IMG/VR virus record: IMGVR_UViG_3300006217_000050
Strand: one strand, 5' to 3'
DNA length: 58,653 nt
Source: a virus
The position numbers and the translations under genes were made by a program. The notes below the pieces were generated by a model. The model saw only the letters and a program-made list of their open reading frames with translations. It did not search any database and was not told the DNA's origin. Of the stretch, positions 5,813 to 49,591 are shown piece after piece; positions within the stretch are counted from its first letter, which is position 1, and the number at the start of each line of letters is the position of its first letter.

Positions 5813-5846
5813 AATTATACATCGTAAAAGGAGCTATTTGTACCAA
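5813..5846 (-). promoter_or_regulatory. Phage-specific promoter-like element P1 (TTGGTACAA-N19-ATAATT)
   Basis: Read on the minus strand. Shares the motif and the exact 19-nt spacing with ten other sites. Confidence 0.55.
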
Positions 5847-5880
5847 AATAAAACCGCCCGGTGCTACCAACACCGAACGG
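5845..5880 (-). terminator. Rho-independent terminator-like hairpin (minus strand)
   Basis: Minus strand reads CCGTTCGGTG-ttggtag-CACCGGGCGG followed by TTTTATTTT. Confidence 0.55.
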
Positions 5881-5893
5881 CTTTAGATACACC

Positions 5894-5950
5894 CCAGAAG
5901 GATGATACATTAGGTCTCCCAAACCTACACACAGTGTATCATCCTCCTGG
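5894..5950. repeat. 16-bp near-perfect inverted repeat with a 25-nt loop (structured RNA/DNA element)
   Basis: ccagaaggatgataca (5894..5909) pairs with tgtatcatcctcctgg (5935..5950), with one mismatch. Confidence 0.6.
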
Positions 5951-6020
5951 GCACCTGGTCAATCAGAACATTTGTTTATGATTGGGTGTAATTTTTGTAC
6001 TCATTTTTAAGGAGGCTATC

Positions 6021-7049
6021 ATGAAGATTGAAAAGCGAGGATCCGGATCCTACCGGGTCAGGAAGATGTACAAGGGGCAGATGTACACGGTCAATTTTGA
6101 CCACAAGCCCACACAGAAAGAAGCTATGTTGGCTATGGCGGATGAGCTACAGAAGATTCAGACTAAGCATGAGAGCATGGATTTCAAAGCGGCGGCTGAA
6201 GAATATATTGAGGCTAAGAAAAATGTATTGTCTCCCACAACAATAAAGGGTTATAAAAGTGCCATGAAAACCATATCTAAAAAATTCCAGGGCCTAAACA
6301 TACACGACATTACGGCCTTAGATATACAATCCGAGATCAATATTTTAGCAATAGGACACAGCCCGAAGACTGTACGGAACTACCACGGCTTTATTTCGGC
6401 CGTCCTGGGCACATTTTGTCCGAACCTTAAGATTAGTACCACCCTGCCACAAAAACTCAAAAACGAGCCGTATATACCCTCTGATGAAGAAGTGAAGAAA
6501 ATACTAAAATATTCTAAGGGAACCGAGTATGAGATTCCAATAATTCTTGCCTGCTATGGTCTACGTAGATCGGAAATATGCGCATTGACACTCGACGATA
6601 TAGAAGATGATATAGTAACCATTGATAAAGCCAAAGTATTAGCAGACACAGAAACCTGGGTAAACAAAACAACAAAGACAACTTCAAGTACACGGCAAAT
6701 TATTATACCAATGGAAATCGCAGACATGATAAGAAAGAAAGGCTACATATACAAAGGCCATCCTAATTCAATAAACTCTTTCCTGGTAAAAACCGAAGAT
6801 AAACTTGGAATACCACACTTTCCGTTGCATAAACTTCGCCATTATTTTGCATCTAAAATGAGTGCTCTAAATGTGCCGGAAGCAGATATTATGAAGATGG
6901 GTGGATGGGAAACGGATCATGTTATGAAATCAGTTTACCGGCATTCCATGATAAACCAAGAAAAAGACGCTAAGAGGCAAGCAGCTGAAAAGTTAAAAAA
7001 TGCCCTTTTCACCCAGGACAACTCCGGACAAATTCTGGACAAAAAGTGA
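6021..7049 (+). CDS. int: Tyrosine-type site-specific integrase
   Basis: ATG 6021 preceded by AAGGAGG. C-terminal HKLRHYFAS ... GGWETDHVMKSVYRH matches the HxLRH and catalytic Tyr motifs. Confidence 0.9.
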   Translation: MKIEKRGSGSYRVRKMYKGQMYTVNFDHKPTQKEAMLAMADELQKIQTKHESMDFKAAAEEYIEAKKNVLSPTTIKGYKSAMKTISKKFQGLNIHDITALDIQSEINILAIGHSPKTVRNYHGFISAVLGTFCPNLKISTTLPQKLKNEPYIPSDEEVKKILKYSKGTEYEIPIILACYGLRRSEICALTLDDIEDDIVTIDKAKVLADTETWVNKTTKTTSSTRQIIIPMEIADMIRKKGYIYKGHPNSINSFLVKTEDKLGIPHFPLHKLRHYFASKMSALNVPEADIMKMGGWETDHVMKSVYRHSMINQEKDAKRQAAEKLKNALFTQDNSGQILDKK

Positions 7050-7094
7050 TACAAATTTGCGTTGTAACGTACAAATATAAATTGTAAAACTGAC

Positions 7095-7154
7095 ATGCAA
7101 AAAGCCGCAGATCCTCGATTTTCCTGGGAAAACCTTGGTTCTGCGGCTTTGCAT
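7095..7154. repeat. Long inverted repeat downstream of int (terminator-like)
   Basis: atgcaaaaagccgcaga (7095..7111) pairs with tctgcggctttgcat (7140..7154). Confidence 0.5.
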
Positions 7155-7160
7155 GAAAAA

Positions 7161-7336: not shown

Positions 7337-7370
7337 TTGGTACAATGATTTTCCCTTTCCATATTATAAT
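7337..7370 (+). promoter_or_regulatory. Promoter-like element P2 (TTGGTACAA-N19-TATAAT)
   Basis: Plus strand, about 100 nt upstream of the antirepressor-like gene at 7473. Confidence 0.6.
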
Positions 7371-7472
7371 GAAAATATGGCAGGGATAGGGAGCGCACCC
7401 GACAAAAGCAGCTTTCCACCTTTCATGCTTTCCCTGCCTATGTTGGAAATGGTGGAGAAAGGTGAAGTGTAT

Positions 7473-8273
7473 ATGAATGATTTGACTGTAAAGACTGTGG
7501 ATTTATTTGGCGACAAGGTGGTTGCGGCGCAGGATAAGGACGGTGTTATCTGGGCCGGGGTCAAGTGGTTTTGCAATGGCCTCGGATTTTCGGATGGGCA
7601 GAGGCAAAGACAAACAACTAATATAGGAGAGGATATAGTATTAAGCAAAGGTGTTGCAAATTTGCACCTCCCTACAAGCGGCGGATATCAGGACGTTTTA
7701 TGCCTGAAACTAGATTTCCTTCCCCTATGGCTTGCGAAGATCTCAATCACGCCAAACATGAAAGAGAATAACCCGGAACTGGTGGACAAACTGGTAAAAT
7801 ATCAGTTGCAGGCGAAAGACATTCTGGCGGCAGCATTCATTCCGGCATTCAGGAAAAGGTCAGCCATAGAAGAGCTGCAGGAATTGCAAGGCAGGGCCAT
7901 CCTGGAGGTAAATGAGAAAGTTGACAGCGTAGAAAAGCGCGTAGACTACTTGGAGAATGATATTCCCCTTTATGGCTCAGAAGCCGACGAAATCAGCCGG
8001 AAAGTAAAGAAGAAGGGCGTGGAGATCCTGGGCGGCAGGGAAAGCGATGCCTATACTGATAGTAAACTGCGATCAGAAGTATATTCGGACATATACAACC
8101 AGATTAAGCGCGAGTTCGGCCTGTATGACAGCAACGGGAAATTTGTAACATACAAGGCCCTGAAGAGGCGATACATCAAAGAGGCCCATGTACTCATCGA
8201 AGCTTATACACCGCCGAAATATCTTGAAGAGAAAATAAAAAACTGCAATGCACAGCAACGGTTAATGGAATGA
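7473..8273 (+). CDS. Antirepressor-like protein: P22_AR_N-like N-domain plus ORF6C-like C-domain
   Basis: ATG 7473 (MNDLTVKTVDLFGDKVVAAQDKDGVIWAGVKWFCNGLG...LWLAKISIT). The C-terminus ...KNCNAQQRL parallels the C-terminus of the 14162 gene. Confidence 0.7.
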   Translation: MNDLTVKTVDLFGDKVVAAQDKDGVIWAGVKWFCNGLGFSDGQRQRQTTNIGEDIVLSKGVANLHLPTSGGYQDVLCLKLDFLPLWLAKISITPNMKENNPELVDKLVKYQLQAKDILAAAFIPAFRKRSAIEELQELQGRAILEVNEKVDSVEKRVDYLENDIPLYGSEADEISRKVKKKGVEILGGRESDAYTDSKLRSEVYSDIYNQIKREFGLYDSNGKFVTYKALKRRYIKEAHVLIEAYTPPKYLEEKIKNCNAQQRLME

Positions 8274-8274
8274 A

Positions 8275-8438: not shown

Positions 8439-9083
8439 ATGTCATTATGTATAACTTTTTACAATGAGCATGGAATAATTATGTCAGCAGACAATATGGT
8501 TTGCTCTACCATAGAAAAAGATAATTCTCCATATACCTATCAAGGTTCCAAAACAGAACAAAAACTTTTTCTTATTGAAGACAAATATGGAGTTTCATAC
8601 TCTGGAGCATCAAACATTTACGCTGCTTCTACTTCAGCCTTTTTGGAGGAATACATTACTTCACATCCTATCATTGAAGTCCCACCAAGTGAATGGCTTC
8701 TTGAATTGGCTCAAAAGTGCAATAATTTGCTTAATCCAAGCCAAAACATGGTTTTTATAATGGCCGGATACTATCATTCTGAAAAGTTTGTTGTGACTAC
8801 TAACACTAAAGAGCCAAAATTGAATTTCCAAACAAATAATAGCGGGTTGCTTTATTCAGGAGAAAGTGAATTTATATCACATTTAATCAACTCGGATATA
8901 ATTGCGTTTGAATATTCTAAATTTACCCTGCAAGACGGTGCTGACTTTTTGCGTTTTCTCAACAAAACAGTTTCAGGGTTAATGCACTATGGACAATATC
9001 TCCCAACTGTAAGTGATACCTGCGACCTTTTAGCCATACGTCCTAATGAGACTCGCTGGTTAGAACACTTGACGCTGCACTGA
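8439..9083 (+). CDS. HslV/proteasome-beta-like Ntn-hydrolase-fold protein (paralog 2, divergent)
   Basis: Starts MSLCITFYNEHGIIMSADNM (alternative ATG at 8427). Also KTEQKLFLIEDKYGVSYSGAS and LLYSGESEF, the same pattern as paralog 1. AT-rich. The ORF track extends it to 8301. Confidence 0.5.
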   Translation: MSLCITFYNEHGIIMSADNMVCSTIEKDNSPYTYQGSKTEQKLFLIEDKYGVSYSGASNIYAASTSAFLEEYITSHPIIEVPPSEWLLELAQKCNNLLNPSQNMVFIMAGYYHSEKFVVTTNTKEPKLNFQTNNSGLLYSGESEFISHLINSDIIAFEYSKFTLQDGADFLRFLNKTVSGLMHYGQYLPTVSDTCDLLAIRPNETRWLEHLTLH

Positions 9084-9240
9084 CCGCACAATCAATTCTT
9101 TTCCTAGTAACAGTCGTTACGGATGTTGAGTCTCTATTGGTCATGACTGTTATTAAGACATCTGGCGCTGAAACGGAAATTTCCTGCTCGTTTACGGTGA
9201 TTTCCGTTTTTCCGTTACTGATAATGATTTCTTTATCCAT
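9043..9240 (-). CDS. hypothetical small protein, convergent with and overlapping Ntn-like paralog 2
   Basis: 65-aa ORF downstream of P3. Overlaps the 3' end of 8439..9083 by 41 nt. Confidence 0.4.
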   Translation of the reverse strand: MDKEIIISNGKTEITVNEQEISVSAPDVLITVMTNRDSTSVTTVTRKRIDCAVSAASSVLTSESH

Positions 9241-9267: not shown

Positions 9268-9301
9268 ATATTATCATATCTATATAAATATTTTGTGCCA
9301 T
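9268..9301 (-). promoter_or_regulatory. Promoter-like element P3 (ATGGCACAA-N19-TAATAT, variant)
   Basis: Minus strand, same 19-nt spacing, one substitution in the upstream box. Confidence 0.45.
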
Positions 9302-9349: not shown

Positions 9350-9393
9350 AAATCACAGGCCGCCACTTGGTTGGTAGTGACGGCCTGTGATTT
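9350..9393 (-). terminator. 18-bp stem hairpin right after the Rha-like gene
   Basis: aaatcacaggccgccact pairs with agtgacggcctgtgattt. Only a short T-run follows. Confidence 0.45.
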
Positions 9394-9923
9394 CAAAAAT
9401 CGGCTATAGACATTTGCTGATATGCCGGAACCTTTGCGAAATTATCAATCAACTTGATTCCATATTGCTCGCAGATTAACTGTGCGTTCCGTACAATATC
9501 ATATGGCGTGGAATCGTTCTTCCTCATCAGCGGAGAAACGGCATTGATTATCTGTGCTACCCTGTCTGGCCGCTCTGTCAGAGGAGTCTGCTTCAACTGG
9601 TTCTCCATTTCATGAAAGCGCTTTACATACCGGGCAGTGAACAGCACTCCCTTTTCACCAGTGAATTTGTTTGCCAGGAAGTCGCAGCCAAGCCTAGTCA
9701 CTTCATAACACTTATTTTCCTTCCCGCTTGCGTCCCGATACGTTGACAGGATAAAGAAATCACTCACCACTATTTCGTTGTCAGTAAGCACCTCGATATA
9801 TCCCTTGATATGCTTGCCATCCTTTTCCTGGCCTTCCAGTTTCCGAAGGACTTTCCAGTGTTCTGTCTCCATCATCTCCGCGATTTCCAGTGTTGTGATT
9901 GTTGCATTCCTTAAATCATCCAT
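9393..9923 (-). CDS. Rha-family phage regulatory protein (antirepressor-like)
   Basis: ATG 9923 (MDDLRNATITTLEIAEMMETEHWKVLRKLE...). The C-terminal tail ...EQYGIKLIDNFAKVPAYQQMSIADF is shared with the 12513 and 27518 genes. Confidence 0.65.
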   Translation of the reverse strand: MDDLRNATITTLEIAEMMETEHWKVLRKLEGQEKDGKHIKGYIEVLTDNEIVVSDFFILSTYRDASGKENKCYEVTRLGCDFLANKFTGEKGVLFTARYVKRFHEMENQLKQTPLTERPDRVAQIINAVSPLMRKNDSTPYDIVRNAQLICEQYGIKLIDNFAKVPAYQQMSIADF

Positions 9924-10037
9924 AGATTTACCATCCCTCTCTTTAATGACCGTCCTTTTTTCCAAATAGGCAAGGAAACAGCCGGACGGTAACAGAACTG
10001 CTTTTCAAGTGCGCTCCCCTATCCTTGCCTTGAAAAT

Positions 10038-10071
10038 ATCGTATCATGAATTCAAATTAATTTTGTACCAT
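10038..10071 (-). promoter_or_regulatory. Promoter-like element P4 (ATGGTACAA-N19-TACGAT, with TG at the extended -10 position)
   Basis: Minus strand, upstream of the Rha-like gene. Confidence 0.55.
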
Positions 10072-14024: not shown

Positions 14025-14058
14025 AATGGTACAAATTATCTTCGGTTCTATGATACGA
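14025..14058 (+). promoter_or_regulatory. Promoter-like element P5 (ATGGTACAA-N19-TACGAT)
   Basis: Plus strand, about 100 nt upstream of the ORF6N-type gene. Confidence 0.55.
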
Positions 14059-14161
14059 TTATTTCAGCGGAGATAGTGATTGCAACACGACAAGCGGTAA
14101 GCCTTAACCGTTTCTCCGCTATTCTGATATAGGCGATTTTACAGAAAGGCAGGTAAAGCGT

Positions 14162-14860
14162 ATGGAAGAATTACAGATTGTGGAATACAATAATATTCGC
14201 GTATTAACCACACAGCAGGTAGCAGAAGCGTATCAGACAAGCACCGATACGGTTAAAAAGAATTTTAGCAGAAACAAAGACAGATACACAGAGGGAAAAC
14301 ATTATATCTGCTTGAATGGCGAGGAATTAAAGGATTTTAAAGCAAAGGGACAAATTGTCACCTCGCCAAATGTGAACACTCTGTACCTCTGGACACAGAA
14401 AGGTTGTCTGCTCCATGCGAAATCCCTTAACACAGATATTGCATGGGAAGTGTATGATAGGCTGGTTGACAATTACTTTGCACCTGTAAAGCAACTTTCG
14501 CAAGTGGATATGATGCGGATTCAGCTTGGCATGATTGACAACCATGAGGACAGAATAACCAATCTCGAAAACAACATGACGATTGATTACGGACAGCAAC
14601 GTGTACTGGAAGATACGGTCAATAAAACCGTTACTGACGTTCTCGGCGGCAAAGGCTCATGTGCTTATGAGGAAATCGGCAGAAAGATATTTGCAGAGTG
14701 CAACAGAGATTTGAAGCATTACTTCAATGTGAACGCAAGGAACAACGTCCCCAAAAAGCGATTTGATGAAGCTGTGGAATATGCAAAGAATTGGAAACCC
14801 TGCACCAATACGGTGATGCGGATTCAATATTGCAATGCACAGCAGACACTGGATGTATAG
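14162..14860 (+). CDS. Antirepressor-like protein: ORF6N (KilA-N-like) N-domain plus ORF6C-like C-domain
   Basis: IVEYNNIRVLTTQQVAEAYQTSTDTVKKNFSRNKDRYTEGKHY. The C-terminus ...YCNAQQTL parallels the 7473 gene. Confidence 0.65.
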   Translation: MEELQIVEYNNIRVLTTQQVAEAYQTSTDTVKKNFSRNKDRYTEGKHYICLNGEELKDFKAKGQIVTSPNVNTLYLWTQKGCLLHAKSLNTDIAWEVYDRLVDNYFAPVKQLSQVDMMRIQLGMIDNHEDRITNLENNMTIDYGQQRVLEDTVNKTVTDVLGGKGSCAYEEIGRKIFAECNRDLKHYFNVNARNNVPKKRFDEAVEYAKNWKPCTNTVMRIQYCNAQQTLDV

Positions 14861-15666: not shown

Positions 15667-16503
15667 TCAAGTATTTACCCTTTTCAGTAGCCCTGCCTTG
15701 AGCAAATTATACATCTGTGTATTCTGGGCCGCCGTGCCCACATATCCCCTGATATCGTTGGCTACCGCGATCTGCTTTCGGAAGGCATAAGTACTGTTAA
15801 TGCCCAGGCTTGTGAGGGCTGCGGAGAGCGTTGTTGGCTTGCCGGTGTATGCTTGGTAGTATGTCCCCAGGTGGACCACCTTGTCTGTGACGTCCTCCAC
15901 GGCGCCACCAGAAGTTTTCTTCTCAAGCTTCAGCTCCGCCACCAAAAAGTCCAGAATTCCCCGGGCAGTTTTTTCTGCATGGGCTTGAGTCAAAATAATT
16001 GGGGTATCCTTCAGGCTGTCCATAAAGCCATTTTCCAAGAGCAGCGCGGGCATATTGGTATTCTTCAGCACATACAGGCCAGAGGAGGGTACTATCTTCT
16101 GGGAGCGGTTGCCCGTCAGGCCATTCTGTTTAACCACCGCATTATACAGCCTCCGTGCCTTCTCCGCGCGGTCCGACTTACCGGAAGCGTAATAATGTAC
16201 AGTCACCCCGCCGCCCGCTCCCCCATTGATTCCTGCATTGTGATGGATGCTCATATAAAAGTCCGCTTTGCCACTATTGGCTGTTTTTGTCCTGGTAGAA
16301 AGCGGCACATCCTTGGCCCCAGTGGTATCTCCCACTCGGAGAACCCTGCAGCCATATTCTGCCAATCCTTTCTCAACCATGTCTGCGATCCGGTCATTGA
16401 GATACCATTCCCGGGTCTGGTTCGGGTCAATACTCTTCAGGCAGCGCTTGCCGGCTGTTCCCATGCCGTGCCCTGCATCCAAGGCGATAGTTTTTATACT
16501 CAT
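15667..16503 (-). CDS. Endolysin, N-acetylmuramoyl-L-alanine amidase (Amidase_3-like) with a C-terminal binding domain
   Basis: IALDAGHGMGTAGKR ... DFYMSIHHNAG motifs. Last gene of the late operon. Confidence 0.8.
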   Translation of the reverse strand: MSIKTIALDAGHGMGTAGKRCLKSIDPNQTREWYLNDRIADMVEKGLAEYGCRVLRVGDTTGAKDVPLSTRTKTANSGKADFYMSIHHNAGINGGAGGGVTVHYYASGKSDRAEKARRLYNAVVKQNGLTGNRSQKIVPSSGLYVLKNTNMPALLLENGFMDSLKDTPIILTQAHAEKTARGILDFLVAELKLEKKTSGGAVEDVTDKVVHLGTYYQAYTGKPTTLSAALTSLGINSTYAFRKQIAVANDIRGYVGTAAQNTQMYNLLKAGLLKRVNT

Positions 16504-28294: not shown

Positions 28295-28321
28295 AAAAAA
28301 GGCACAGCCTTAAGCCATGCC
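28295..28321 (-). terminator. Rho-independent terminator inside the tail gene block
   Basis: Minus strand reads GGCATGGC-ttaag-GCTGTGCC followed by TTTTTT. Confidence 0.6.
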
Positions 28322-28331
28322 CCCGCAGTCA

Positions 28332-34919: not shown

Positions 34920-35585
34920 TTAATCTCCTTTCTTAACTTCCCTTATCGGGGTGAATCCGAAATTGAAAGCGGGCTTGTCATCGCCCCTGGCAGGTTTTCC
35001 GGTAGTGGGAGCTGTAAACTGTCCTTTTGGCGCGCTCTCGGCAGCTTTCTGTTTGGCTTCTTCCTCAGCAGCCTTATCTGCAGCGGCTTTCTTCTCGTCC
35101 TCTGTCTGATAGAAGTGGTCTTTTTCGTTCTCCTTTTCCAGATAGTCTGACAGCCCCATAAACGCACCGTCCTTCCACTTCAGGCCGTCCTCGCCCATGA
35201 TATCAGCCATGAGAGATTTCCTGGTGCGGTCGGAAGAGATTCCCAGTTTCTCGAACTCTGCATTAAGATAATCACGCTGGTCACGCTGGAGAATCTGCTT
35301 GCTGGCGGTCTCCTGCGCTTCTTTCGCCGCCTGCTTATACTTCTCGATCTCCGCCGCCTGCTTCTCCGGATCAATATCCTTGAACTTCTCCAGGGTCTCA
35401 TTCGCCGTGTCCAGCTGCCCTTTGTAAGTATCCCGGTCAGATTCCGCCGCTTCCAGCTTCTTGGCCTGCTTGTCATAGTCAGCAACCGTGCGGTAGTTTT
35501 CCGTCACAGCCTTATTGACCGCCGCTTTCTGCTCGTCAGTAACTTCAACTCCTGCTTCTTTCAAAATCTGTTCAATGTTCTTCAT
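34920..35585 (-). CDS. Scaffolding protein
   Basis: 221 aa, charged coiled coil (KQAAEIEKYKQAAKEAQE...). Confidence 0.7.
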   Translation of the reverse strand: MKNIEQILKEAGVEVTDEQKAAVNKAVTENYRTVADYDKQAKKLEAAESDRDTYKGQLDTANETLEKFKDIDPEKQAAEIEKYKQAAKEAQETASKQILQRDQRDYLNAEFEKLGISSDRTRKSLMADIMGEDGLKWKDGAFMGLSDYLEKENEKDHFYQTEDEKKAAADKAAEEEAKQKAAESAPKGQFTAPTTGKPARGDDKPAFNFGFTPIREVKKGD

Positions 35586-35664: not shown

Positions 35665-35754
35665 TCGGGAAAGTTGGAATCGAACCAACAATGTTTACCG
35701 CGTGGGAACGGATTTACAGTCCGCCGCAACACCACCAATCGTTGCCGTTTCCCG
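35665..35754 (-). tRNA. tRNA-Tyr (anticodon GTA), long variable arm, no encoded CCA
   Basis: Hand fold. Acceptor CGGGAAA/TTTCCCG (7 bp). D-stem GCAAC/GTTGC. Anticodon stem CGGA/TCCG with loop CTGTAAA. T-arm GTTGG-TTCGATT-CCAAC. Confidence 0.75.
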
Positions 35755-35929: not shown

Positions 35930-35963
35930 ATTGTACCGCAGTTTGGTGGGGAAGTTGTACCAA
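35930..35963 (-). promoter_or_regulatory. Promoter-like element P8 (TTGGTACAA-N19-TACAAT)
   Basis: Minus strand, upstream of tRNA-Tyr and the scaffold/capsid genes. Confidence 0.55.
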
Positions 35964-35974: not shown

Positions 35975-36050
35975 ATCTGCATACCGGAATCGAACCGATA
36001 AAAGTACGGAATCACTTTGGATATTGCTGACCGTTTTCTCCCAGTGCAGA
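35975..36050 (-). ncRNA. tRNA-like element (T-arm plus 6-bp acceptor helix; body does not fold as a cloverleaf)
   Basis: T-arm ATCGG-TTCGATT-CCGGT. Acceptor TCTGCA/TGCAGA. Confidence 0.35.
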
Positions 36051-36184
36051 ACCCATTTCCTATTGAAATGATTAGTCAATTCTGATTTTCAAGCCAAACA
36101 GTTTCCAAAACTCCGGTTTCTCTTTCTCTGATATGCTCTCCATATCTGCCTGAACAAGAAAACCTTAAAAAAGAAATAGGCTCA

Positions 36185-36280
36185 TGGATAGACAGGGAAT
36201 CGAACCCTGCACTGTCAGACGGTGCCAGTTTATCTGACTTTTTTTTGCACAACCGCCGCGTATACATTTCGCCACTATCC
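36185..36280 (-). ncRNA. 96-nt tRNA-like element (T-arm plus acceptor helix; non-canonical body with an A8 run)
   Basis: T-arm CAGGG-TTCGATT-CCCTG. Acceptor GGATAG/CTATCC. Internal 6-bp helix GTCAGA/TCTGAC. Confidence 0.35.
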
Positions 36281-36385
36281 ACTTTTGAAGCAATAACCAC
36301 TCGCTCCAATGATGCCTCCCACCGGTGCCTTCCGTTCTCGACGGACTGCGGCGCCCAGTTCTCCTCTATAGCATCTTCCCAGGCA

Positions 36386-36461
36386 TGGAAAGTATAGGAA
36401 TCGAACCTATCTCGCCGGTGCTAGCCTCCCAGCAGTTTCACGCCAGATAACACAACTTTCC
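36386..36461 (-). ncRNA. 76-nt tRNA-like element (perfect 7-bp acceptor and T-arm; anticodon region non-canonical)
   Basis: Acceptor GGAAAGT/ACTTTCC. T-arm ATAGG-TTCGATT-CCTAT. GG at the D-loop position. The best anticodon helix leaves a 6-, 8- or 10-nt loop containing CTA. Confidence 0.4.
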
Positions 36462-36650
36462 ACTGTCCATTTTCTGTCTGCAAGGACCGTGCAGTGCGGA
36501 CTTACATAGTTTAACGTGTTCTTAAAGCCGATATTCGTTGCGAGAAACGCCACGTTTGGCACTTTTGTCCTGGCCGCAGATCGTTAATTAAATGTTTGCT
36601 TTGTGATTCCGAGTCTTCATGTCGGCATCCTCCTTTTGCTTGATAGATAC

Positions 36651-36684
36651 ATGATACCATGATTCCAGAATTAATTTGTACCAA
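36651..36684 (-). promoter_or_regulatory. Promoter-like element P9 (TTGGTACAA-N19-TATCAT)
   Basis: Minus strand, at the head of the ORF-poor RNA locus. Confidence 0.55.
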
Positions 36685-36723
36685 GTTATACGCAAAAGAG
36701 CGGCATCACTGCCGCCCCTTTCC

Positions 36724-39964: not shown

Positions 39965-40165
39965 TCAACACACCTTAATTATTTTGTTTTTCATTTTTCT
40001 ACTCAACCGCTTTACTGTTGAAACACTTACATTCAGTTTCTCCGCGCACTGCTCTAAGGGTATATCCTTACAGCGCATAGTAAATACCTGCAATTCAGCT
40101 TCCGTAAAGTTACATTCCCTTATGCAATATTCTATTTCCGGTTTTGTAAAGCTGCATACTTTCAA
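39965..40165 (-). CDS. Sigma-70 region-4-like / LuxR-type HTH mini-protein (66 aa)
   Basis: TEAELQVFTMRCKDIPLEQCAEKLNVSVSTVKRLSRKMKNKI. Confidence 0.55.
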   Translation of the reverse strand: MKVCSFTKPEIEYCIRECNFTEAELQVFTMRCKDIPLEQCAEKLNVSVSTVKRLSRKMKNKIIKVC

Positions 40166-40231: not shown

Positions 40232-40597
40232 CTAGTCATTCTGGTCTTTGCCATTGTTTATAATCTCCATTATCTCTTTGGCCTGTTCCGGCGTTACATC
40301 AGCACTTATCACATTTCCGGAGCTATCCATCAGAGTGTATACCCCAGTCTGCTCTATAGTGCTTGTGAAATCATACTGATACAGGTACCAGATAAACCCA
40401 GCTATTGTGAGAACTTCCACAACTACCATAACAAGAAATGTATGATACCATCTCTTGGATTGTGCTTTCAGTTCTCCTAACATCTCCATTGCCAGGCCCT
40501 TTTCTTCTTTTTCAGCTACATTTTCTTCATTTCCCATCCTCATCATCCTCCGGTATATATTTTTCAATATTATACCAACTATCAGCAATATATGCAA
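40232..40597 (-). CDS. Single-pass membrane protein (start uncertain)
   Basis: TM segment WYHTFLVMVVVEVLTIAGFIWYLY. Confidence 0.5.
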   Translation of the reverse strand: MHILLIVGIILKNIYRRMMRMGNEENVAEKEEKGLAMEMLGELKAQSKRWYHTFLVMVVVEVLTIAGFIWYLYQYDFTSTIEQTGVYTLMDSSGNVISADVTPEQAKEIMEIINNGKDQND

Positions 40598-40978: not shown

Positions 40979-41194
40979 TTAAGGTGCAAAATACTTTCCG
41001 TTTGTGGCATTATCAATACATCCACCTAACTCAGAAAAGAAAAAAGATACTTGATCCTCTTTATCAGTTCCGTTCCCCATCTGCCATATTTCGTGCCCTA
41101 CCCTTTTACAGATTTCACTTGCCTTTTGGAAGATTTCCTTTTCCTCTTCTGTGAATGTGACACTACAGTCAGTGTTTGTTGATATATTTGCCAT
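40979..41194 (-). CDS. hypothetical small protein
   Basis: ATG 41194 preceded by AGGAGG, downstream of P10. Confidence 0.5.
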   Translation of the reverse strand: MANISTNTDCSVTFTEEEKEIFQKASEICKRVGHEIWQMGNGTDKEDQVSFFFSELGGCIDNATNGKYFAP

Positions 41195-41223
41195 CTTCCC
41201 CACCTCCTACCTTAATTTTACAA

Positions 41224-41257
41224 CAGATTCAGGCGGGGGTTGTACCAATTATTCAGC
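41224..41257 (-). promoter_or_regulatory. Promoter-like element P10 (TTGGTACAA-N19-TAAAAT)
   Basis: Minus strand. Confidence 0.55.
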
Positions 41258-43157: not shown

Positions 43158-43451
43158 TCACTCTTTATTTTTCATGAATTCCAGAATAAATGCCAAATTA
43201 CACGCGGCATGGTACAGATGTGGAAATCCGCTTTCTTCATCTTTCTTGCCAATATCCTCAAAGCAGGGAAGAATATGCCTGAGCATAGCATCAAAATATC
43301 TCTCAATTTCCACATTCTTCCAATTCTCTCTCCCCCCGTATTTCTTTACTCCATATTCTCTGATCTTTGCAATATCATATATAATAGCAGTAGGGACAAG
43401 TGAAATTTGGAGCTTTCCGTCATCGGATTTTACACTCTGATCGTAATCCAT
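43158..43451 (-). CDS. dATP/dGTP diphosphohydrolase-like (DUF5664, all-alpha MazG-type) protein
   Basis: ATG 43451. DDGKLQISLVPTAIIYDIAKIREYGVKKYGGRENW...AMLRHI...DEESGFPHLYHAACNLAFILEF fits the family signature as I recall it. Confidence 0.6.
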   Translation of the reverse strand: MDYDQSVKSDDGKLQISLVPTAIIYDIAKIREYGVKKYGGRENWKNVEIERYFDAMLRHILPCFEDIGKKDEESGFPHLYHAACNLAFILEFMKNKE

Positions 43452-43452
43452 G

Positions 43453-44925
43453 CTATTCCTCCCCAAATAATCCCTCTTTCGGCTCATTCTCGCTCTTGGC
43501 TTCTGCCACAATAGCCCGCGCTTCTTCTTCCGTGAACCCTTCGTTATGCACCAAATAATACCACTTGGGATAAAATCCCTTATCCGTCAACAGCAACGCC
43601 CTTGACCGATCTTCCTCAGCGTTTCTCGTAAGGTCTGCAAAGTCCGCATATATTTCATAGTTCCCAAACTCGCTAGGAGCTGATTCTCCGTTGATAACGG
43701 ACATAGCGTCCATTATATAGGCTATGTCATGGATAGCCCCTATACGGCCGTCTCCGTTGCTGTCAGGGCATGATAGAATGTCCCGGTAATCTCCAACCGT
43801 ATTGATTGTGCGCCGCTCCGTTGCTTCTACCTGGGTAGCAGTAGCAACGGAAATAGTCTGTCCGTTAAAGACAAAATATCCTGGGTCGAACCCGGTCTTG
43901 TAAGAAATGATAGAAAGCAGGAAATTTATGCCGTCTGTCCGGCTCGCCACCTGGAGCTGCGGCTGCCACTGCTCAAATGGCTTTCCGCCATCCAAGTCAT
44001 CTGCACCAACGTCTTTGAGCACAAGCCTTGGCAGCTTAATCCCATGTGTTTCCGCATACTGTATGGCAGACTGCCCAACAATCATTTTGGGTGCCGAATC
44101 CTCAGTTTCGATTCCCATAGTACTCATGGCAATATCCAGCCAGCGCAATTCCTCAATACATTCGGAAAAGCAGGATACTCCCAGGGGGCTGTCGGGGTCT
44201 ATGGTGTTGCTGTATGGGTTCTTTATGTACACGAACAAAGGCTTTTCAAGGTTCTCCGCTGTAAACTCTGGCGCAATGTCCGCCCACTTAGTATTCTTAA
44301 GAGAAATTTCCCGTCCGATCTGGTCTTGCTGGTCCGACACAAAGGCTTTGTTGGACACCCAGTAAATGCGGACCGATACCATTTCTCCGGCTTCGTTCTT
44401 CTGTGTGCCATCCTCGAACCTGTGCCATTCTGCCCTGGTGTAGAACTTTTTTTCTTTCTGATAGTACGAGAAAAATATCGCCCCGGTCACTTCCCCATTA
44501 CTGTCAAATTCAGTCACAAGAAAGCGATCCGGCGGTATGTAGTCCATGCCATCACCGTTCCATTTCGCCATCACGCCGCCAAGCCGAATCACCTTTTCCA
44601 TGTTTTCCTGGGCATTCTTTAGGAAATGGTCATCAATGGCTTTCTGGATTTTTGTTGCAGTTTCCCCGGTTCCATACTTAGCCTGCACCTTAATGTCAAT
44701 GTTCTGCGTGACCAGCTTAGACAGTTCCCTGGCCACAGTGTTTGAAAAGCGGATTGTTCGGGTATCGCCTTCAACCCACGGCGGCTTTCCACTCTCCAAC
44801 TGCCCCCACAGCTTGATAGCAGCGTCCATTTCCGGCGAAAGGTACGTTTCCACACCGAAAGCCTTTTCAGCGTCCGTTTTAAACAGCATTTTGAATTTCT
44901 CCTTTATCCATGTTATCAGTCCCAT
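43453..44925 (-). CDS. Portal protein
   Basis: 490 aa, by size and position in the packaging module. Confidence 0.75.
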   Translation of the reverse strand: MGLITWIKEKFKMLFKTDAEKAFGVETYLSPEMDAAIKLWGQLESGKPPWVEGDTRTIRFSNTVARELSKLVTQNIDIKVQAKYGTGETATKIQKAIDDHFLKNAQENMEKVIRLGGVMAKWNGDGMDYIPPDRFLVTEFDSNGEVTGAIFFSYYQKEKKFYTRAEWHRFEDGTQKNEAGEMVSVRIYWVSNKAFVSDQQDQIGREISLKNTKWADIAPEFTAENLEKPLFVYIKNPYSNTIDPDSPLGVSCFSECIEELRWLDIAMSTMGIETEDSAPKMIVGQSAIQYAETHGIKLPRLVLKDVGADDLDGGKPFEQWQPQLQVASRTDGINFLLSIISYKTGFDPGYFVFNGQTISVATATQVEATERRTINTVGDYRDILSCPDSNGDGRIGAIHDIAYIMDAMSVINGESAPSEFGNYEIYADFADLTRNAEEDRSRALLLTDKGFYPKWYYLVHNEGFTEEEARAIVAEAKSENEPKEGLFGEE

Positions 44926-46464: not shown

Positions 46465-47805
46465 TTAATACTTCCACCTCAACCGCCGCCGCAGGAATGT
46501 ATAGCATAAATAGCGTATCTGGTCACACTGGTGGTCATTCTCCTTTATAACAGCGTCTTCTGGGCTTTCCATGTCCCAGGAATACAATCCCATTTCACTC
46601 ATTACCGATTCGCAATCTTCATAAAAGCTGATAATTCCTTTGTTCAGCATGGTTGTGACAACCCGTATTCCGTCCAGTACATCATTTTCCGCACCCTTGG
46701 CAATGTATTTCCCATGCTTCTTGATTGTTTCGATAAATGAAGCGGCGGACGGGTCAACGATTATAAAAGACACTTTCCTATCCCCGATCAGTTTGCATAG
46801 TTCCTGATAATGCGTTTCATCATCGCGCCTTACCCCGGTTTCGCGGCTGTCATAGTAATATTCGTACTCCATTTGTGCGTGCCGGCCATCAAACGCCCAT
46901 AAGCCTGCTGCAAATGGGTTGACCGTTCCATAGTCGATAGATGCCACCCATTCTTTCGCCCCGGTCATATGCTTATCAGAAACGTGCTTGTCCTCGTCAA
47001 ACATGGAGTAGACAAGACCCTCTGCCACACACCACTCACCAAGAATATAGCGCTTATAGAACACTCCCTTATACATTGAGCGATAACGGTTCTTTATTTT
47101 CTCACTCAAAGACAAATTATCATCCATTGTGAAGTGAAGATATATCAGATTCTTTTCGCCGCTCTGATCTATCCAATCAGTTTTAAAGAAGTGTTTCGGG
47201 TCGCCCGGATTGCAGTTAAAGAAATACTTTGAACCCTCAACGGAACACCGTCCAGTTGCCTGATTCACAAAGGACTGCGGCATTAAGGCAACCTCATCAA
47301 AGAAGAATCCTGCCGCAGTAATTCCCTGTACTAAATCCTGCGAACGCTCGTTGTTTCCGCCGAAAATGTAAAAGTAATTTGTCTTATTTCTCTTGCTGAT
47401 AATGAGATAATGGTCGTCGCCCCTATGGTCTATGACTGTATATCCTCTGCTTTTCAACATCAGCTTCAGCCAAAATATGACGTTTCTACGGAAAGAAGCT
47501 ATTGTTTTCCCTGCCATTCCAAATATCTGCAGGTTATATGTATCCATTGCCCAGAACACATAGGACAGTGACATGGAGAGCGTTTTCCCGCTCCTGATTG
47601 CCCCGTCTGCTATAATCCCGTCCATGTCCTTGACTGGGCTTGCAGGACACCACCATGTGAGGACTTTCTTCTGTTTGGTGGAAAACGGCTTGAACTGGAA
47701 GCCCTGCTTCTGCACCTTTGCCTTCATGGCGGCGGCACGTTTTGCTATGCCTTTGCGGATATTTTCTATCCTGGTGTTGATGTCGTTCAAACTGTTTCGC
47801 TCCAA
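46465..47805 (-). CDS. terL: Terminase large subunit
   Basis: 446 aa. Walker A-like DGAIRSGKT, Walker B-like FFFDE, C-terminal nuclease-size domain. Confidence 0.85.
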   Translation of the reverse strand: MERNSLNDINTRIENIRKGIAKRAAAMKAKVQKQGFQFKPFSTKQKKVLTWWCPASPVKDMDGIIADGAIRSGKTLSMSLSYVFWAMDTYNLQIFGMAGKTIASFRRNVIFWLKLMLKSRGYTVIDHRGDDHYLIISKRNKTNYFYIFGGNNERSQDLVQGITAAGFFFDEVALMPQSFVNQATGRCSVEGSKYFFNCNPGDPKHFFKTDWIDQSGEKNLIYLHFTMDDNLSLSEKIKNRYRSMYKGVFYKRYILGEWCVAEGLVYSMFDEDKHVSDKHMTGAKEWVASIDYGTVNPFAAGLWAFDGRHAQMEYEYYYDSRETGVRRDDETHYQELCKLIGDRKVSFIIVDPSAASFIETIKKHGKYIAKGAENDVLDGIRVVTTMLNKGIISFYEDCESVMSEMGLYSWDMESPEDAVIKENDHQCDQIRYLCYTFLRRRLRWKY

Positions 47806-48146
47806 TCAATAGCCTGCCCGCATTCATGACAATATTTTCGTTTTCCTTTTCTCCAAAATCCTTCATAAGTCCAATCTACATTGCTATCACAAGTAGGGCA
47901 ACATGCAAGTTTATCTGTATCATTTTGTCCTGTGGTTATATTTGGTTTCTTTGGTATTTGCTTTTCCCTTGCCTCCCGACATTCCTCGACTGTGCCGATT
48001 GCAATATATTCCTCTAATGCAGATACCACTAATGCATCTGCGCAATAGCATTTTCCATCTTTGTAACTTCCGCATTCGCCCTCACAGTTATCAAGACATA
48101 ATTCGTTATTATTTTTTAATGATTCAATCGCTTCCAGAATCTCCAT
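47787..48146 (-). CDS. Cys-rich zinc-ribbon-like protein
   Basis: 119 aa. CCPTCD ... CHECG pairs. Confidence 0.5.
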   Translation of the reverse strand: MEILEAIESLKNNNELCLDNCEGECGSYKDGKCYCADALVVSALEEYIAIGTVEECREAREKQIPKKPNITTGQNDTDKLACCPTCDSNVDWTYEGFWRKGKRKYCHECGQAIDWSETV

Positions 48147-48645
48147 CTTCCTCTACCTCGCTTTCCTCCCACACTTCCGCCGCCGTTCCGTTTAGCGCGT
48201 CCATGAAATTATCTTCTGCTTCCTCCTCCGGCTGGCTATCCTTGACTTGGCTCTCCAGCTTCAGGAGTTCGATTTCAAGCTTCTGTTTATCCAACTGGTG
48301 TTTCATTGGATTGTTAATGAATTTATCTATCACAATCCCCATAGCAGTAGCAATCTCTGACAGCTTCGCCGCTTCTATTTTCTCTGGCTTTTTCAGCGCT
48401 TCTATATAAGCATCCAATACATCTTTCGCTTTCTCTTTTCTGGAATCCAGATAATCCAAAATTTCGGCGGTGTTCTGTTCTCTTTTTTGTGTACACTTCT
48501 GTACAGTTTCCGGATTTCCTGTACACACTGACCTTACAGTCATTGCGGATACGCCAAATTTCTTTGCTGTAGCCCTGTAGCTGCCAGATTCAGCATAATC
48601 TGCAATCATTTCTTTTTTCTGTTTATCCGTCAGCCTGGCAGCCAC
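48124..48645 (-). CDS. terS: Terminase small subunit
   Basis: 173 aa. N-terminal HTH (SYRATAKKFGVSAMTVRS), acidic C-terminus, upstream of terL. Confidence 0.7.
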   Translation of the reverse strand: MAARLTDKQKKEMIADYAESGSYRATAKKFGVSAMTVRSVCTGNPETVQKCTQKREQNTAEILDYLDSRKEKAKDVLDAYIEALKKPEKIEAAKLSEIATAMGIVIDKFINNPMKHQLDKQKLEIELLKLESQVKDSQPEEEAEDNFMDALNGTAAEVWEESEVEEDGDSGSD

Positions 48646-48681
48646 TTCTCATCACCTCAATCTGCAAATACTTTCTGCCTG

Positions 48682-48909
48682 TCATTCCGTAATCAAATCA
48701 AGGAAAACAATATCATTTGCGACAGGCATAACGATTCTTCCGTCTGGTAACTCTACAATTGCAACAGAATAATTTCCGGGTCCGCTATCACAAAATTCCT
48801 CATAGTTCATTCCCCATTCATGGAAATAACCCAATTCAAAATCCATGCTATGCCATTTCCCATTTTCATATATGTTACATTTCCCTTTACATCTTCTCAA
48901 TTTATTCAT
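48682..48909 (-). CDS. hypothetical protein, GYFHxWG-motif family
   Basis: GYFHEWG...VAIVELPDGRIVMPVANDIVFLD. Confidence 0.5.
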   Translation of the reverse strand: MNKLRRCKGKCNIYENGKWHSMDFELGYFHEWGMNYEEFCDSGPGNYSVAIVELPDGRIVMPVANDIVFLDLITE

Positions 48910-48927
48910 TTCCCTATCCTTTCCCTG

Positions 48928-49515
48928 TCATTCTCCTACTTCTTTCAATGCTGCTTCAGCTTCTTTTCTGGTGAGGAAAAACCGTTTTCCAAGGTCTGAA
49001 ATCTGAAACTGCGTCATATGCCCGGCACCGATTTCAACATTTATGAAACCTCCTGTGCTGTTGATTCCAATAAACACGACTTCTGCAGCGTATGGCCTAC
49101 CTTTTTCCCTGAAATACCACCCCTTCATTGAATGGTTTGTATATACCGTATCCCCCACTGCGCAGGGCAGTTTCAGCAGTTTTCCTTGTTCCTCTAAGTC
49201 CTCGTAATATTTCAGACGCTCCCTCAGCCCCGCCATTGCCCACAAATTACGGTAAAACAACGCAATCAGCCCCTCTATGCTGTCCGTGCCATCCTCAAGA
49301 CAAGCCGTAATATATTCCTCAAAGTCTTCGTCGCAAGTGAAAGCGTCATCTCCATCCGCAAAGTCTTTCAAAAGCTTCCTTGCCAGTATCCTGGCATCCA
49401 CCTCCACGCCATAATCCCTATACCATGCCGATCTATCCTTGACAAAGCAGGAATTATATGCCAGTTCTACCATTCCCATTTCTGATACTGACTTATTGCT
49501 TGTCAATCTCTCCAT
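48928..49515 (-). CDS. hypothetical protein
   Basis: ATG 49515 preceded by GGAGGGGAAGG, downstream of P11. Confidence 0.55.
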   Translation of the reverse strand: MERLTSNKSVSEMGMVELAYNSCFVKDRSAWYRDYGVEVDARILARKLLKDFADGDDAFTCDEDFEEYITACLEDGTDSIEGLIALFYRNLWAMAGLRERLKYYEDLEEQGKLLKLPCAVGDTVYTNHSMKGWYFREKGRPYAAEVVFIGINSTGGFINVEIGAGHMTQFQISDLGKRFFLTRKEAEAALKEVGE

Positions 49516-49557
49516 ATTTCCCTTCCCCTCCACAATCCCCCTAAATCCCCTAATGAT

Positions 49558-49591
49558 ATTATACAGGAGATTTTAGAGAGAGTTGTACCAA
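49558..49591 (-). promoter_or_regulatory. Promoter-like element P11 (TTGGTACAA-N19-TATAAT)
   Basis: Minus strand, at the head of the block leading to terS/terL. Confidence 0.6.

Follow-up and report, generated by a model that had tools for sequence, protein, structure and literature searches.

Middle promoters of phage T4 combine a MotA box with a sigma70 -10 element and are read by sigma appropriation through MotA and AsiA; the MotA box has its centre near -30, at a distance of 11-13 bp to the -10 element. In MerR-type promoters, over-long spacers of 19-20 bp place the -35 element too far for unaided sigma-A, and a factor is therefore needed. Ogr of phage P2 and Delta of P4 are zinc-finger activators of four late promoters in proteobacterial hosts, and the Ogr site is a dyad near -55. 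For Gram-positive siphoviruses, late activators are described as the Ltr superfamily, which comprises RinA, ArpU, LtrA (Sigma70_r4), LtrB (DUF1492), and LtrC (Quiles-Puchalt et al. 2013, PMC3753634). Their binding target is a region of DNA repeats ahead of terS, and one promoter serves the whole late cluster from packaging to lysis (PMC3753634). In clostridia, promoters of the group-5 sigma factors TcdR, UviA, and BotR carry a TTTACA -35 and a GTTATA -10 element, and an SRQ signature has been reported for region 4.2 of this group (PMC4031146).

The stretch of DNA analysed here (IMG/VR record IMGVR_UViG_3300006217_000050, 58,653 nucleotides, hereafter the window) comes from a temperate siphovirus of gut Lachnospiraceae whose genome, about 58.5 kb in size, is complete and assembled as a circle. 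It holds eleven copies of a promoter-like motif, and these are very probably genuine promoters that form a single phage-specific class. The motif itself is real. The pattern WTGGYACAA-N19-TANNAT has 10 exact matches in the window, against 0.02 ± 0.14 (maximum 1) in dinucleotide-preserving shuffles. The first-pass annotation had reported eleven copies with exactly 19 nt between the two elements. This holds for ten of them; the eleventh (box 5838..5846, minus strand) has TATAAT at N18 and reaches N19 only with the weaker hexamer ATAATT. The core TGGYACAA occurs 19 times where 4.4 are expected, and eight occurrences lack a -10 partner, all within coding regions (19471, 23043, 52353, and five TGGCACAA). 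The first two had already been recognized as chance copies. As originally described, every one of the 11 sites is intergenic with respect to the ORFs accepted as genes and faces the next gene. A start codon with a Shine-Dalgarno sequence follows on the same strand 20-115 nt past the -10 element at 10 of the 11; the exception is the copy at 36684, which has only a 10-codon ORF and RNA-like elements downstream. The fuller conserved element, TTTAAy-TTGGTACAA-N10-rAAyC-n-(A)TGn-TAnnAT, is longer than first described. Since sequence likeness beyond the motif is limited to the four antirepressor-gene copies, duplication does not explain the motif family.

Six copies, all on the minus strand, are located within the late region. 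Copy 11 (49558..49591; TTGGTACAA-N19-TATAAT) marks the early/late junction. It begins one base past the stop codon of a Lar-like gene, and its predicted targets are a 201-aa gene, a 75-aa gene, the genes of the HTH small terminase (48124..48645) and the large terminase (46465..47805), and the portal gene. The terS block, listed earlier among the targets, would be served by this copy and not by copy 10 (41215..41248; TTGGTACAA-N19-TAAAAT), which lies directly past the minor-capsid-2 gene region and precedes small head-module genes (40979..41203 onward), among them a sigma-r4-like gene. Copy 9 (36651..36684; TTGGTACAA-N19-TATCAT) is followed by a tRNA-like stretch of non-coding DNA (36386..36620) and then by a 77-aa ORF (36076..36309). 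Copy 8 (35930..35963; TTGGTACAA-N19-TACAAT) precedes the scaffold (34920..35585) and major capsid (34015..34914) genes, with an element at 35668..35752 in between that had been called tRNA-Tyr but is a tRNA-like element scoring below the Rfam threshold. Within the tail module, copy 7 (28228..28261; TTGGTACAA-N19-TACCAT) faces a conserved 98-nt leader (from 28227) and an embedded P22_AR_N antirepressor-like gene (27518..28129), and copy 6 (27446..27479; TTGGTACAA-N19-TACAAT) the tape-measure gene (23871..27218), with a small ORF (27273..27425) ahead of it. Terminator-like hairpins are found directly upstream of copies 6 (27480..27510), 7 (28262..28288), and 9 (36691..36720), as well as of copy 1, where the hairpin is strong (5845..5884). 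Because terminators separate the packaging, head, and tail units, each of them would need its own promoter.

The remaining five copies belong to the accessory region. Copy 1 (5814..5846, minus strand; TTGGTACAA-N18-TATAAT), the sole N18 copy, faces a 57-aa ORF (5611..5784), and its transcript would enter the plus-strand cI/ImmA/proteasome-like operon (4169..5661) in antisense direction. Copy 3 (9268..9301, minus strand; ATGGCACAA-N19-TAATAT) precedes a 65-aa ORF (9043..9240). The other three face antirepressor-like genes through RNA leaders. Copy 5 (14026..14059, plus strand; ATGGTACAA-N19-TACGAT) is followed by an int-alpA RNA (Rfam RF02996; 14066..14134, plus strand) and an ORF6N/ORF6C gene (14162..14860). 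Copy 4 (10038..10071, minus strand; ATGGTACAA-N19-TACGAT) precedes a weaker int-alpA copy (9954..10029, minus strand) and a Rha-family gene (9393..9923/9965). Copy 2 (7337..7370, plus strand; TTGGTACAA-N19-TATAAT) precedes another weaker one (7379..7438, plus strand) and a gene with P22_AR_N and ORF6C domains (start about 7467/7473, end 8273). Most site coordinates of the first-pass annotation stand; 14025 is corrected to 14026, and 41224..41257 to 41215..41248.

The int-alpA leaders bear on where transcription would start. The RNA behind copy 5 reaches 37.7 bits, above the gathering score of 35.8, and covers model positions 1-71. Its model position 1 is the 7th nucleotide past the -10 element, i.e., the predicted +1. 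The leader of copy 4 scores 24.2 bits, under the gathering score, and that of copy 2 was assigned by alignment and covariation only. In nine leaders, the covarying P1 stem begins 7-10 nt past the -10 element. This coincidence of the RNA 5' boundary with the predicted +1 supports a transcription start at that position.

The -10 element TAnnAT, present in all 11 sites, fits sigma-A. In contrast, no TTGACA-like hexamer is found 16-18 nt upstream of it at the motif sites: the hexamers at 17 and 18 bp read ACAAnn and TACAAn, and the best TTGACA-like readings, GGTACA and TTGGTA, are located 20 and 22 bp away. Within the box, a -35-like GTACA(A) is shifted upstream from the legal register by about 3 bp. 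The same genome offers a contrast class at 4045..4138, where the cro-like and cI-like genes diverge. Their promoters are canonical, with TTGACA-17-TACTAT (and a TG) for the minus strand and TTGCTA-18-TATAAT for the plus strand. Neither the TGGTACAA box nor TGGYACAA is present in this control region (3990..4230). The original claim that the upstream box does not match TTGACA at a legal spacing is therefore upheld, and its proposed recognition by a phage-specific factor rather than by region 4 of host sigma-A is supported as far as sequence goes. An extended -10 (TGn) is found in six of the 11 sites; TG abuts the hexamer in three, and two have none. In Firmicutes, an extended -10 can function without any -35 element. 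Some of the six copies with a good extended -10 might therefore fire without a factor.

About 25 related phages and prophages from Lachnospiraceae (L121-L133, L139, L158-L164, L167, L177, L178) retain box, 19-nt spacing, and orientation at matching positions, in every case on the coding strand. Among 113 distinct TGGTACAA contexts, TAnnAT follows at N19 in 53, at N18 in one, and at N20 in one. Across 51 non-redundant sites, box and -10 element are invariant, and the flanks upstream of -8 carry no information. In about 20 relatives, an orthologue of copy 11 precedes the terminase genes, and orthologues of copy 10 occur in at least 12, with the near-identical spacer CCCCCGCCCGAATCTGTTG; copy 9 has orthologues in L177 and L178, and copy 8 in L178 (at 8024). 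Conservation at orthologous positions had been set beforehand as a test of the motif; the motif passes it, and the N19 spacing proved invariant. Other related phages have their own box variants, such as ATATGTACAA, GGGGACAA, and GTGTATACAA, at the same spacing. The variant is AAATATGTACAA in L229 and L176 (four copies), AAAGGTGTATACAA in L233 (two copies), GTGTGTACAA in L244 (two copies), and GGGGACAA in L231 and a clade defined by a 147-aa homologue of the candidate activator described below, all at N19. That sister phages keep their own variants at one spacing argues for a phage-encoded reader.

Compared with the known systems, the motif shares with the T4 middle promoters a retained primary-sigma -10, an asymmetric 9-bp phage box in place of the -35 element, a fixed distance, and many scattered copies. 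However, the box here lies at -40 to -32, 19 bp from the -10 element, the phage is a temperate siphovirus and not T4-like, and a Pfam scan of about 90 window proteins gave no MotA or AsiA domain. As in MerR-type promoters, a -35-like element (GTACA or GGACA) is placed about 20 bp from the -10 element. The spacer here holds no dyad-symmetric operator, because spacers differ between copies, and no MerR-family protein was found among the same roughly 90 proteins. Group-5 sigma promoters have a TACA-containing -35 core and the Clostridia context in common with the motif; their -10 element and spacing differ. The Ltr-controlled phages are likewise temperate siphoviruses of Firmicutes with an activator-dependent promoter upstream of terS, a dependence that is inferred here. 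In contrast to them, the sites have a single asymmetric box without a consistent upstream repeat; indeed, a second GGTAC occurs within 150 nt upstream in only nine of 56 sites, at varying distances. Moreover, six copies serve the late region, several with a terminator hairpin directly ahead.

A candidate activator is encoded at 50123..50578 (minus strand). This protein, p151, is small (151 aa) and basic (pI 9.4) and, like the Ltr activators, is encoded just ahead of the terminase genes. One Lar-like gene separates it from copy 11, a position that is the same in relatives. It has 11 Cys with an N-terminal Cys cluster, followed by a conserved helical core of about 100 aa that ends in ...GRxDFYGYRRLFYHLFD. 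A small Cys-rich candidate combined with several dispersed promoters that share an upstream element recalls P2 Ogr and P4 Delta. However, the Cys-rich N-terminus is missing from most members of the p151 family, and no sequence similarity to those activators was detected. Searches of p151 and 33 homologues against Pfam, NCBIfam, and PDB sequences gave no match, and p151 belongs to none of the Ltr families (ArpU, RinA, Sigma70_r4, DUF1492, LtrC). The sole PHROG match is phrog_11237, whose function is not annotated. As no DNA-binding domain was detected in p151 and its model has no structural neighbour (a sigma-2 neighbour in the PDB included), its proposed role is deduced from position and co-occurrence. 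The family forms 680 clusters at 50% identity, all without annotation, and its members are the last early gene ahead of the terminase genes in diverse phages. For 13 of 34 distinct homologues, the first motif copy overlaps the p151 stop codon or is located between -60 and +400 nt from it; among control windows, the figure is 18 of 610. Shared ancestry and synteny confound this linkage. In the 147-aa clade, box and last codons of the homologue overlap. No motif is located within 400 nt of the stop codon in the other 21 homologues; in many of them, and in the window as well, the first copy is 0.5-1.7 kb further on. Relatives with a 66%-identical terL that lack p151 lack the motif too. L229 has four copies of GTACAA-N19-TAnnAT, yet the 10 kb that precede its portal gene encode no p151 homologue, and a 182-aa double-HTH protein occupies the early/late junction instead. 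Taken together, p151 is the best candidate and the most likely activator of the motif promoters.

The first-pass annotation had proposed 50123..50578 and 39965..40165 as regulators, and these come out as the two best candidates. The second (39965..40165, minus strand; sig66) is encoded downstream of copy 10; its 66 aa form a stand-alone protein whose four helices adopt a sigma-region-4/LuxR-type fold. Its AlphaFold2 model has a pLDDT of 94.5, the best Foldseek matches are region 4 of sigmaE on -35 DNA, region 4 of SigF, and AlgU (TM about 0.7), and weak sigma matches were obtained in Pfam, PHROG, and NCBIfam. The whole motif could thus be read by a non-canonical sigma-like assembly in which sig66 contacts GTACAA, either by itself on the core or the sigma-A polymerase or jointly with p151 in a split or two-subunit specificity factor. 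The fold, the location of the box at the -35 position, and its rigid spacing fit this idea, which we nonetheless consider unlikely. sig66 is present in every multi-copy motif phage in which the region is covered (18 loci, including L229, L231, L232, and L233, and also in L244), and two p151-positive phages without sig66 have the junction copy alone. On the other hand, L240 and L241 show the promoter architecture without sig66, and L242 and L243 encode distant homologues without the motif. The recognition helix of sig66 is highly variable among phages with an identical box, and closely similar sig66 proteins in L233 and L178 go with different boxes; sig66 thus does not follow the box variants. 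Being encoded downstream of motif copies in the late region, it cannot begin the cascade. Furthermore, the -10 element is typical of sigma-A, and the phage encodes no full sigma factor with regions 2 and 4, in contrast to the alternative and group-5 sigma systems, only the region-4-like sig66, which lacks the SRQ signature. No region-2-like protein was found; the neighbouring ORF 40232..40597, considered for this part, encodes a membrane-like protein. sig66 may possibly be an auxiliary factor.

Alternatively, the box may be the operator of a phage repressor that binds at -40 to -32 and silences all eleven promoters in the lysogen; these would be intrinsically active extended -10 promoters. Dispersed repressor sites are known from mycobacteriophage L5 (stoperators) and phiC31, and the asymmetric sites described here are likewise dispersed genome-wide and co-oriented with transcription. 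A prophage must hold antirepressor and late genes off, and the copies with TGnTAnnAT (six of 11) may be -35-independent. However, five copies have no proper TGn and would be weak alone. Unlike the L5 sites, the box is missing from the immunity-region early promoters (3990..4230), where an immunity repressor must act. An operator also needs no invariant 19 bp, a rigidity that is typical of co-recognition with polymerase, and at the early/late junction, the place of activators, the first copy is linked with a small basic protein. A repressor operator is therefore quite improbable. As for ordinary constitutive sigma-A promoters, in which the box would be a tolerated odd -35 or a host-factor site, the -10 and TRTG elements and the UP-like AT-rich TTTAAy fit, but this reading is very unlikely. 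The 9-bp box is invariant among drifting flanks, which indicates selection for a specific reader. It differs among sister phages of similar hosts that each hold several copies of their own, which speaks against a host factor, and where sigma-A alone must act, the same genome has canonical -35 boxes.

We consider it somewhat better than an even chance that the sites are a second, phage-specific promoter class, at which an early-operon protein, most likely p151, binds the box and recruits or repositions the sigma-A polymerase. Host sigma-A polymerase would recognize the -10 element (TAnnAT, often with the Gram-positive TRTG or extended -10), and its usual -35 contact would be missing. The asymmetric 9-bp box TTGGTACAA, at about -40 to -32 and a fixed 19 bp from the -10 element, would take the place of the -35 element. 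The early-operon protein would bind there and contact the polymerase in a class-II-like or sigma-appropriation-like activation. Its activity would turn on the packaging, head, and tail units, the four antirepressor-like genes with int-alpA leaders, and the antisense transcript into the lysogeny operon. At the early/late junction, p151 is encoded in the place of the RinA, ArpU, and Ltr activators of other Gram-positive phages. More speculatively, and with a low probability in our estimate, the p151 family may represent a new, fifth kind of late-gene activator in phages of Firmicutes, which would work in a manner akin to sigma appropriation and force sigma-A holoenzyme onto a -35-like element shifted by 3 bp, with a spacer of effectively 20 bp, and with sig66 as a second component that would spread the programme to internal and accessory promoters in multi-promoter phages.

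The motif WTGGYACAA-N19-TAnnAT marks a real, conserved and well-delimited class of very probable promoters, which is accompanied by an unannotated candidate regulator family. The first-pass annotation had described eleven copies with a fixed 19-nt spacing. Ten exact matches are present in the window (shuffled sequences: 0.02 +/- 0.14); the eleventh site, with its box at 5838..5846(-), carries TATAAT at N18. Two positions were also corrected, from 14025 to 14026 and from 41224..41257 to 41215..41248. Numbered by position, copies 1-11 lie at 5814..5846(-), 7337..7370(+), 9268..9301(-), 10038..10071(-), 14026..14059(+), 27446..27479(-), 28228..28261(-), 35930..35963(-), 36651..36684(-), 41215..41248(-) and 49558..49591(-). 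All eleven are located between accepted genes and face the next gene, as already proposed, with a start codon 20-115 nt past the -10 hexamer except at copy 9, where a non-coding tRNA-like stretch comes next. The core TGGYACAA occurs 19 times in the window (4.4 expected), and its copies without a -10 partner sit in coding sequence. Alignment of the 11 sites gives the extended element TTTAAy-TTGGTACAA-N10-rAAyC-n-(A)TGn-TAnnAT.

TAnnAT is found at N19 in 53 of the 113 distinct TGGTACAA contexts from the window and its relatives, with single cases at N18 and N20. A further peak of 19 contexts at N24 is read as a putative second TAGAAT overlapping the terminase-type copies. Duplication was ruled out as the source of the motif family, which is not a by-product of it, since flank similarity in local alignments is restricted to the leaders and 5' coding regions of the four antirepressor units. 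A scan of IMG/VR for TTGGTACAA-N16-TGNTANNAT returned, among the matches listed, single and apparently random occurrences only, and a literature search with the box sequence found nothing but primers.

A 109-nt terminal direct repeat (1..109 = 58545..58653) indicates that the window is a circular assembly and represents a complete genome of about 58.5 kb, with a GC content of 44.7%. Its gene map was built from domain searches. A cro-like gene (3764..4054(-)) lies next to an immunity operon of a cI-like HTH gene (4169..4612(+)), an ImmA-like peptidase (4625..5080(+)) and a proteasome-like gene (5107..5661(+)). The integrase (5982..7049(+)) and an accessory zone (7.3-14.9 kb) of antirepressor-like genes with P22_AR_N, ORF6N/ORF6C or Rha domains follow. 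Replication genes (AAA_24, Gp157, DUF927 primase, DnaG zinc finger) run on the minus strand from 4054 across the origin. This strand also carries a C5 methylase, the adjoining PAPS-reductase-like gene (52073..53194(-)), the gene of p151, a 151-aa candidate activator (50123..50578(-)), and a Lar-like gene, in this order. The HTH small terminase (48124..48645(-)) and the large terminase (46465..47805(-)) are likewise on the minus strand, as are, past the latter, the portal and minor capsid 2 genes, which flank a dATP/dGTP diphosphohydrolase-like gene (43158..43511(-)). The scaffold gene (34920..35585(-)) is followed by capsid and tail genes; the tape measure gene is found at 23871..27218(-) and an Amidase_3 lysin at 15667..16503(-). 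The proteasome-subunit-like, diphosphohydrolase-like and PAPS-reductase-like genes are unusual phage cargo. The large terminase is most similar (83-92% identity) to those of prophages in mouse-gut Lachnospiraceae (Acetatifactor, Hungatella, isolate JLR.KK009), and relatives also occur among IMG/VR contigs. At the DNA level, a megablast search of the GenBank phages with 24 kb gave no match.

Conservation in relatives had been set beforehand as a condition for the motif. Indeed, the motif recurs in about 25 related loci (numbered below with an L). Its position corresponds from locus to locus, and it invariably lies on the coding strand: it is found ahead of the terminase cluster, directly past the minor-capsid gene, and ahead of the scaffold/capsid genes and of antirepressor-like genes. 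One of the motif-bearing loci, L164, is the related prophage of the isolate Lachnospiraceae bacterium JLR.KK009 (CP143549.1). Across 51 non-redundant sites, neither the box nor the TA...T of the hexamer varies, and the information content upstream of -8 is about 0.1 bit.

Sister phages keep N19-TAnnAT and the ACAA end of the box and change its 5' part, each with its own version in several copies. L176 and L229 carry AAATATGTACAA (four copies), Dulem virus 35 (L233) AAAGGTGTATACAA (two copies), L244 AA(A/T)GTGTGTACAA (two copies), and L231 and a large gut-phage clade (A)TGGGGACAA. On sequence grounds, these versions at one geometry favour the earlier proposal that a phage-specific factor reads the box. 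This reader is probably phage-encoded, since a factor of the host should not differ among phages of similar hosts.

The leaders of the antirepressor genes support the promoter assignment. These leaders of about 100 nt (96-114 nt) represent copies of int-alpA (RF02996), an orphan Rfam motif, with one of them above the gathering score. The leader of copy 5 (14066..14134(+)) matches the model over its full length with 37.7 bits (gathering score 35.8), a hit that the whole-window run at gathering score did not pick up. Model position 1 falls on 14066, the 7th nt past the hexamer of copy 5, and this 5' boundary independently supports the predicted start site. The leaders of copies 2 and 4 (7379..7438(+) and 9954..10029(-)) and seven orthologous leaders in relatives (L124 8072; L127 8297 and 14629; L160 14741; L161 14271 and 15709; L162 15900) adopt the same fold. 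Their outer stem begins 7-10 nt past the -10 and shows compensatory changes in 7 of 13 pairs, with covarying versions such as GTGAGGA/TCCTCAC, GGCAGGGA/TCCCTGCC and GCGGAGA/TCTCCGC. In this phage group, int-alpA RNA is always positioned right at +1 of a motif promoter.

Other RNA-like stretches were observed at 28396..28469(-), 35665..35754(-), 36386..36475(-), 28294..28397(-) and about 35975..36010(-). ARAGORN gave three tRNA calls, for Asp-ATC, Tyr and Ala, with a length of 90 nt in two cases; all stay below the Rfam gathering score, the highest value being 28.9 bits, against tRNA-Sec. A sub-threshold similarity to the sRNA SpF41 (38.7 bits) was seen at 28294..28397(-), and a T-arm-like ATCGGTTC(A/G)ATTCCGGT is repeated a short distance upstream of copy 7 and of copy 8. 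The ARAGORN-called and SpF41-like stretches have the appearance of tRNA-like elements or of remnants, with terminators following them. Right before the tape-measure start, 27208..27255(-) weakly matches gut-2 RNA (25.3 bits, under threshold).

Strong terminator-like hairpins (-16 to -25 kcal/mol) directly precede copies 1, 6, 7 and 9, and their T-tracts run into the TTTAAy element. Because of these hairpins, the late region would need several promoters. Copy 1 (region 5611..5846(-)) faces the 3' end of the cI/ImmA/proteasome-like operon (4169..5661(+)). At terminase-type copies, a perfect inverted repeat of 10 nt, made up of the spacer TCCCCCTAAA and the first transcribed bases TTTAGGGGGA, brackets the -10 and the start site (L159 8055..8064 / 8091..8100; L163 2922..2931 / 2958..2967); the window has a weaker form (49507..49523 / 49565..49581). 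This repeat could give a hairpin formable only in read-through transcripts of the early operon or, alternatively, could be bound by a dimeric regulator.

As for recognition, sigma-A is suggested by the -10 hexamer and the TRTG features. The GTACA/GGACA core of the box, which spans -40..-32, resembles the ACA half of a -35 element moved about 3 bp upstream, with an effective spacer of 20 bp. The most economical reading would be a three-step activation. An early phage protein would bind the box and hold or reposition the polymerase, either by class-II activation or by a remodelling of sigma region 4 like that of T4 MotA/AsiA. The insulated late units and the antirepressor/int-alpA units would then be switched on, together with a copy 1 transcript running antisense into the cI-ImmA-proteasome-like operon.

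The position of p151 makes it a candidate for this early protein. In every relative covering the region, the first motif copy lies 0.1-1.7 kb downstream of p151, and relatives with a 66%-identical terminase but without p151 lack the motif too. In unrelated phages, p151 is the last gene ahead of Terminase_2/Terminase_3. The pattern [GT][GTA]ACAA-N19-TA...T occurs at -60..+400 nt of the p151 stop in 13 of 34 distinct homologues, compared to 18 of 610 control windows. In a 147-aa clade of the p151 family, the last codons (KSGDKLDLLS*) even encode the box, and the TGA stop provides the TG of the extended -10 (L237 4420..4452, L238, L239, L240 10420, L241 4625). The protein has a pI of 9.4 and 11 Cys, mainly in an N-terminal cluster, and AlphaFold2 predicts a helical C-terminal core with confidence (pLDDT >90 from about residue 60). 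Searches of Pfam, NCBIfam and PDB sequences and tblastn against GenBank phages gave no match, Foldseek against PDB and BFVD returned uncharacterised Siphoviridae proteins only (E at least 0.01), and the cluster tables hold no names for its homologues. The family comprises 680 clusters at 50% identity, most members being the 100-aa core alone.

The sister phage L229 (capsid protein 79% identical) has four AAATATGTACAA promoters at N19 (6177, 16348, 17102, 18476), and p151 was not found within 10 kb upstream of its portal gene; p151 is thus not the sole possible partner. The junction gene of L229 (5601..6149(+)) encodes a 182-aa double-HTH protein that combines HTH_23 with GerE/Sigma70_r4. This is compatible with a model in which the 5' part of the box, which varies, is dictated by the protein made from the junction gene, and the shared (G/T)ACAA-N19 part would be a common contact with the polymerase.

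A sigma-like recognition of the motif could instead be based on sig66, a stand-alone 66-aa protein (39965..40165(-)) with a model pLDDT of 94.5. Structurally, it is closest to domains of sigma region 4 (2h27, sigmaE region 4 on -35 DNA, TM 0.72; SigF; AlgU), followed by LuxR and KorA HTH domains. It is present in all multi-copy motif phages with the region covered and absent from two p151-positive phages having the junction copy only. Against a primary role, its gene itself lies behind motif copies, the recognition helix is highly variable among phages sharing an identical box, L233 and L178 differ in their boxes despite very similar sig66 sequences, and distant homologues are found in motif-less phages. 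It would therefore be an auxiliary factor at most. The variable 5' part of the box is not tracked by sig66 residues, and covariation of box variants with sig66 or p151 residues gave nothing usable, the p151 core being too uniformly conserved. A split sigma gene (40232..40597 + 39965..40165) was rejected, as the upstream ORF encodes a hydrophobic unrelated protein.

The invariance of the box and its phage-specific variants also weaken the view that the sites are plain constitutive promoters. That the box is a repressor operator is weakened by the rigid spacing and by the cI/cro intergenic region, where the box was looked for and is absent. The promoters there are of the textbook type (TTGACA-17-TACTAT with TG; TTGCTA-18-TATAAT), which indicates that the host polymerase gets a normal -35 where it acts alone. 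Sigma-54 (TGGCAC-N5-TTGC) was dismissed as the bases past the box are not TTGC, the sporulation sigmas E, F, G and K and sigma-H, by their consensus sequences, as CATA-type -10s and matching spacings do not persist from copy to copy and the late copies lack CAT, and TcdR group-5 promoters on both -10 and spacing.

Overall, the system resembles Ltr-type late activation combined with the logic of T4 middle promoters and belongs to neither family. The protein families, DNA repeat region and single-promoter layout of Ltr systems are all missing from this phage, as are the T4 MotA box geometry and, among the roughly 90 window proteins searched, MotA/AsiA proteins. Analogies with MerR-type, Ogr-type and TcdR-type systems each break down at defining features.

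To our knowledge, gene timing in phages infecting the dominant gut Clostridia is almost unstudied. Temperate siphoviruses of Gram-positive bacteria are described in textbooks as having a single Ltr-dependent late promoter. In contrast, this phage follows a modular programme of eleven insulated units sharing one rigid promoter architecture. If copy 1 fires with the other copies, antisense RNA would be produced against the lysogeny-maintenance genes. If confirmed, orthogonal promoter/activator pairs would become available for engineering gut Firmicutes, and in hundreds of uncultured Lachnospiraceae phages the sequence signature would serve to annotate transcription units of the late and accessory kind. 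The lytic programme would then also be connected with the antirepressor genes and with int-alpA, so far an orphan RNA.
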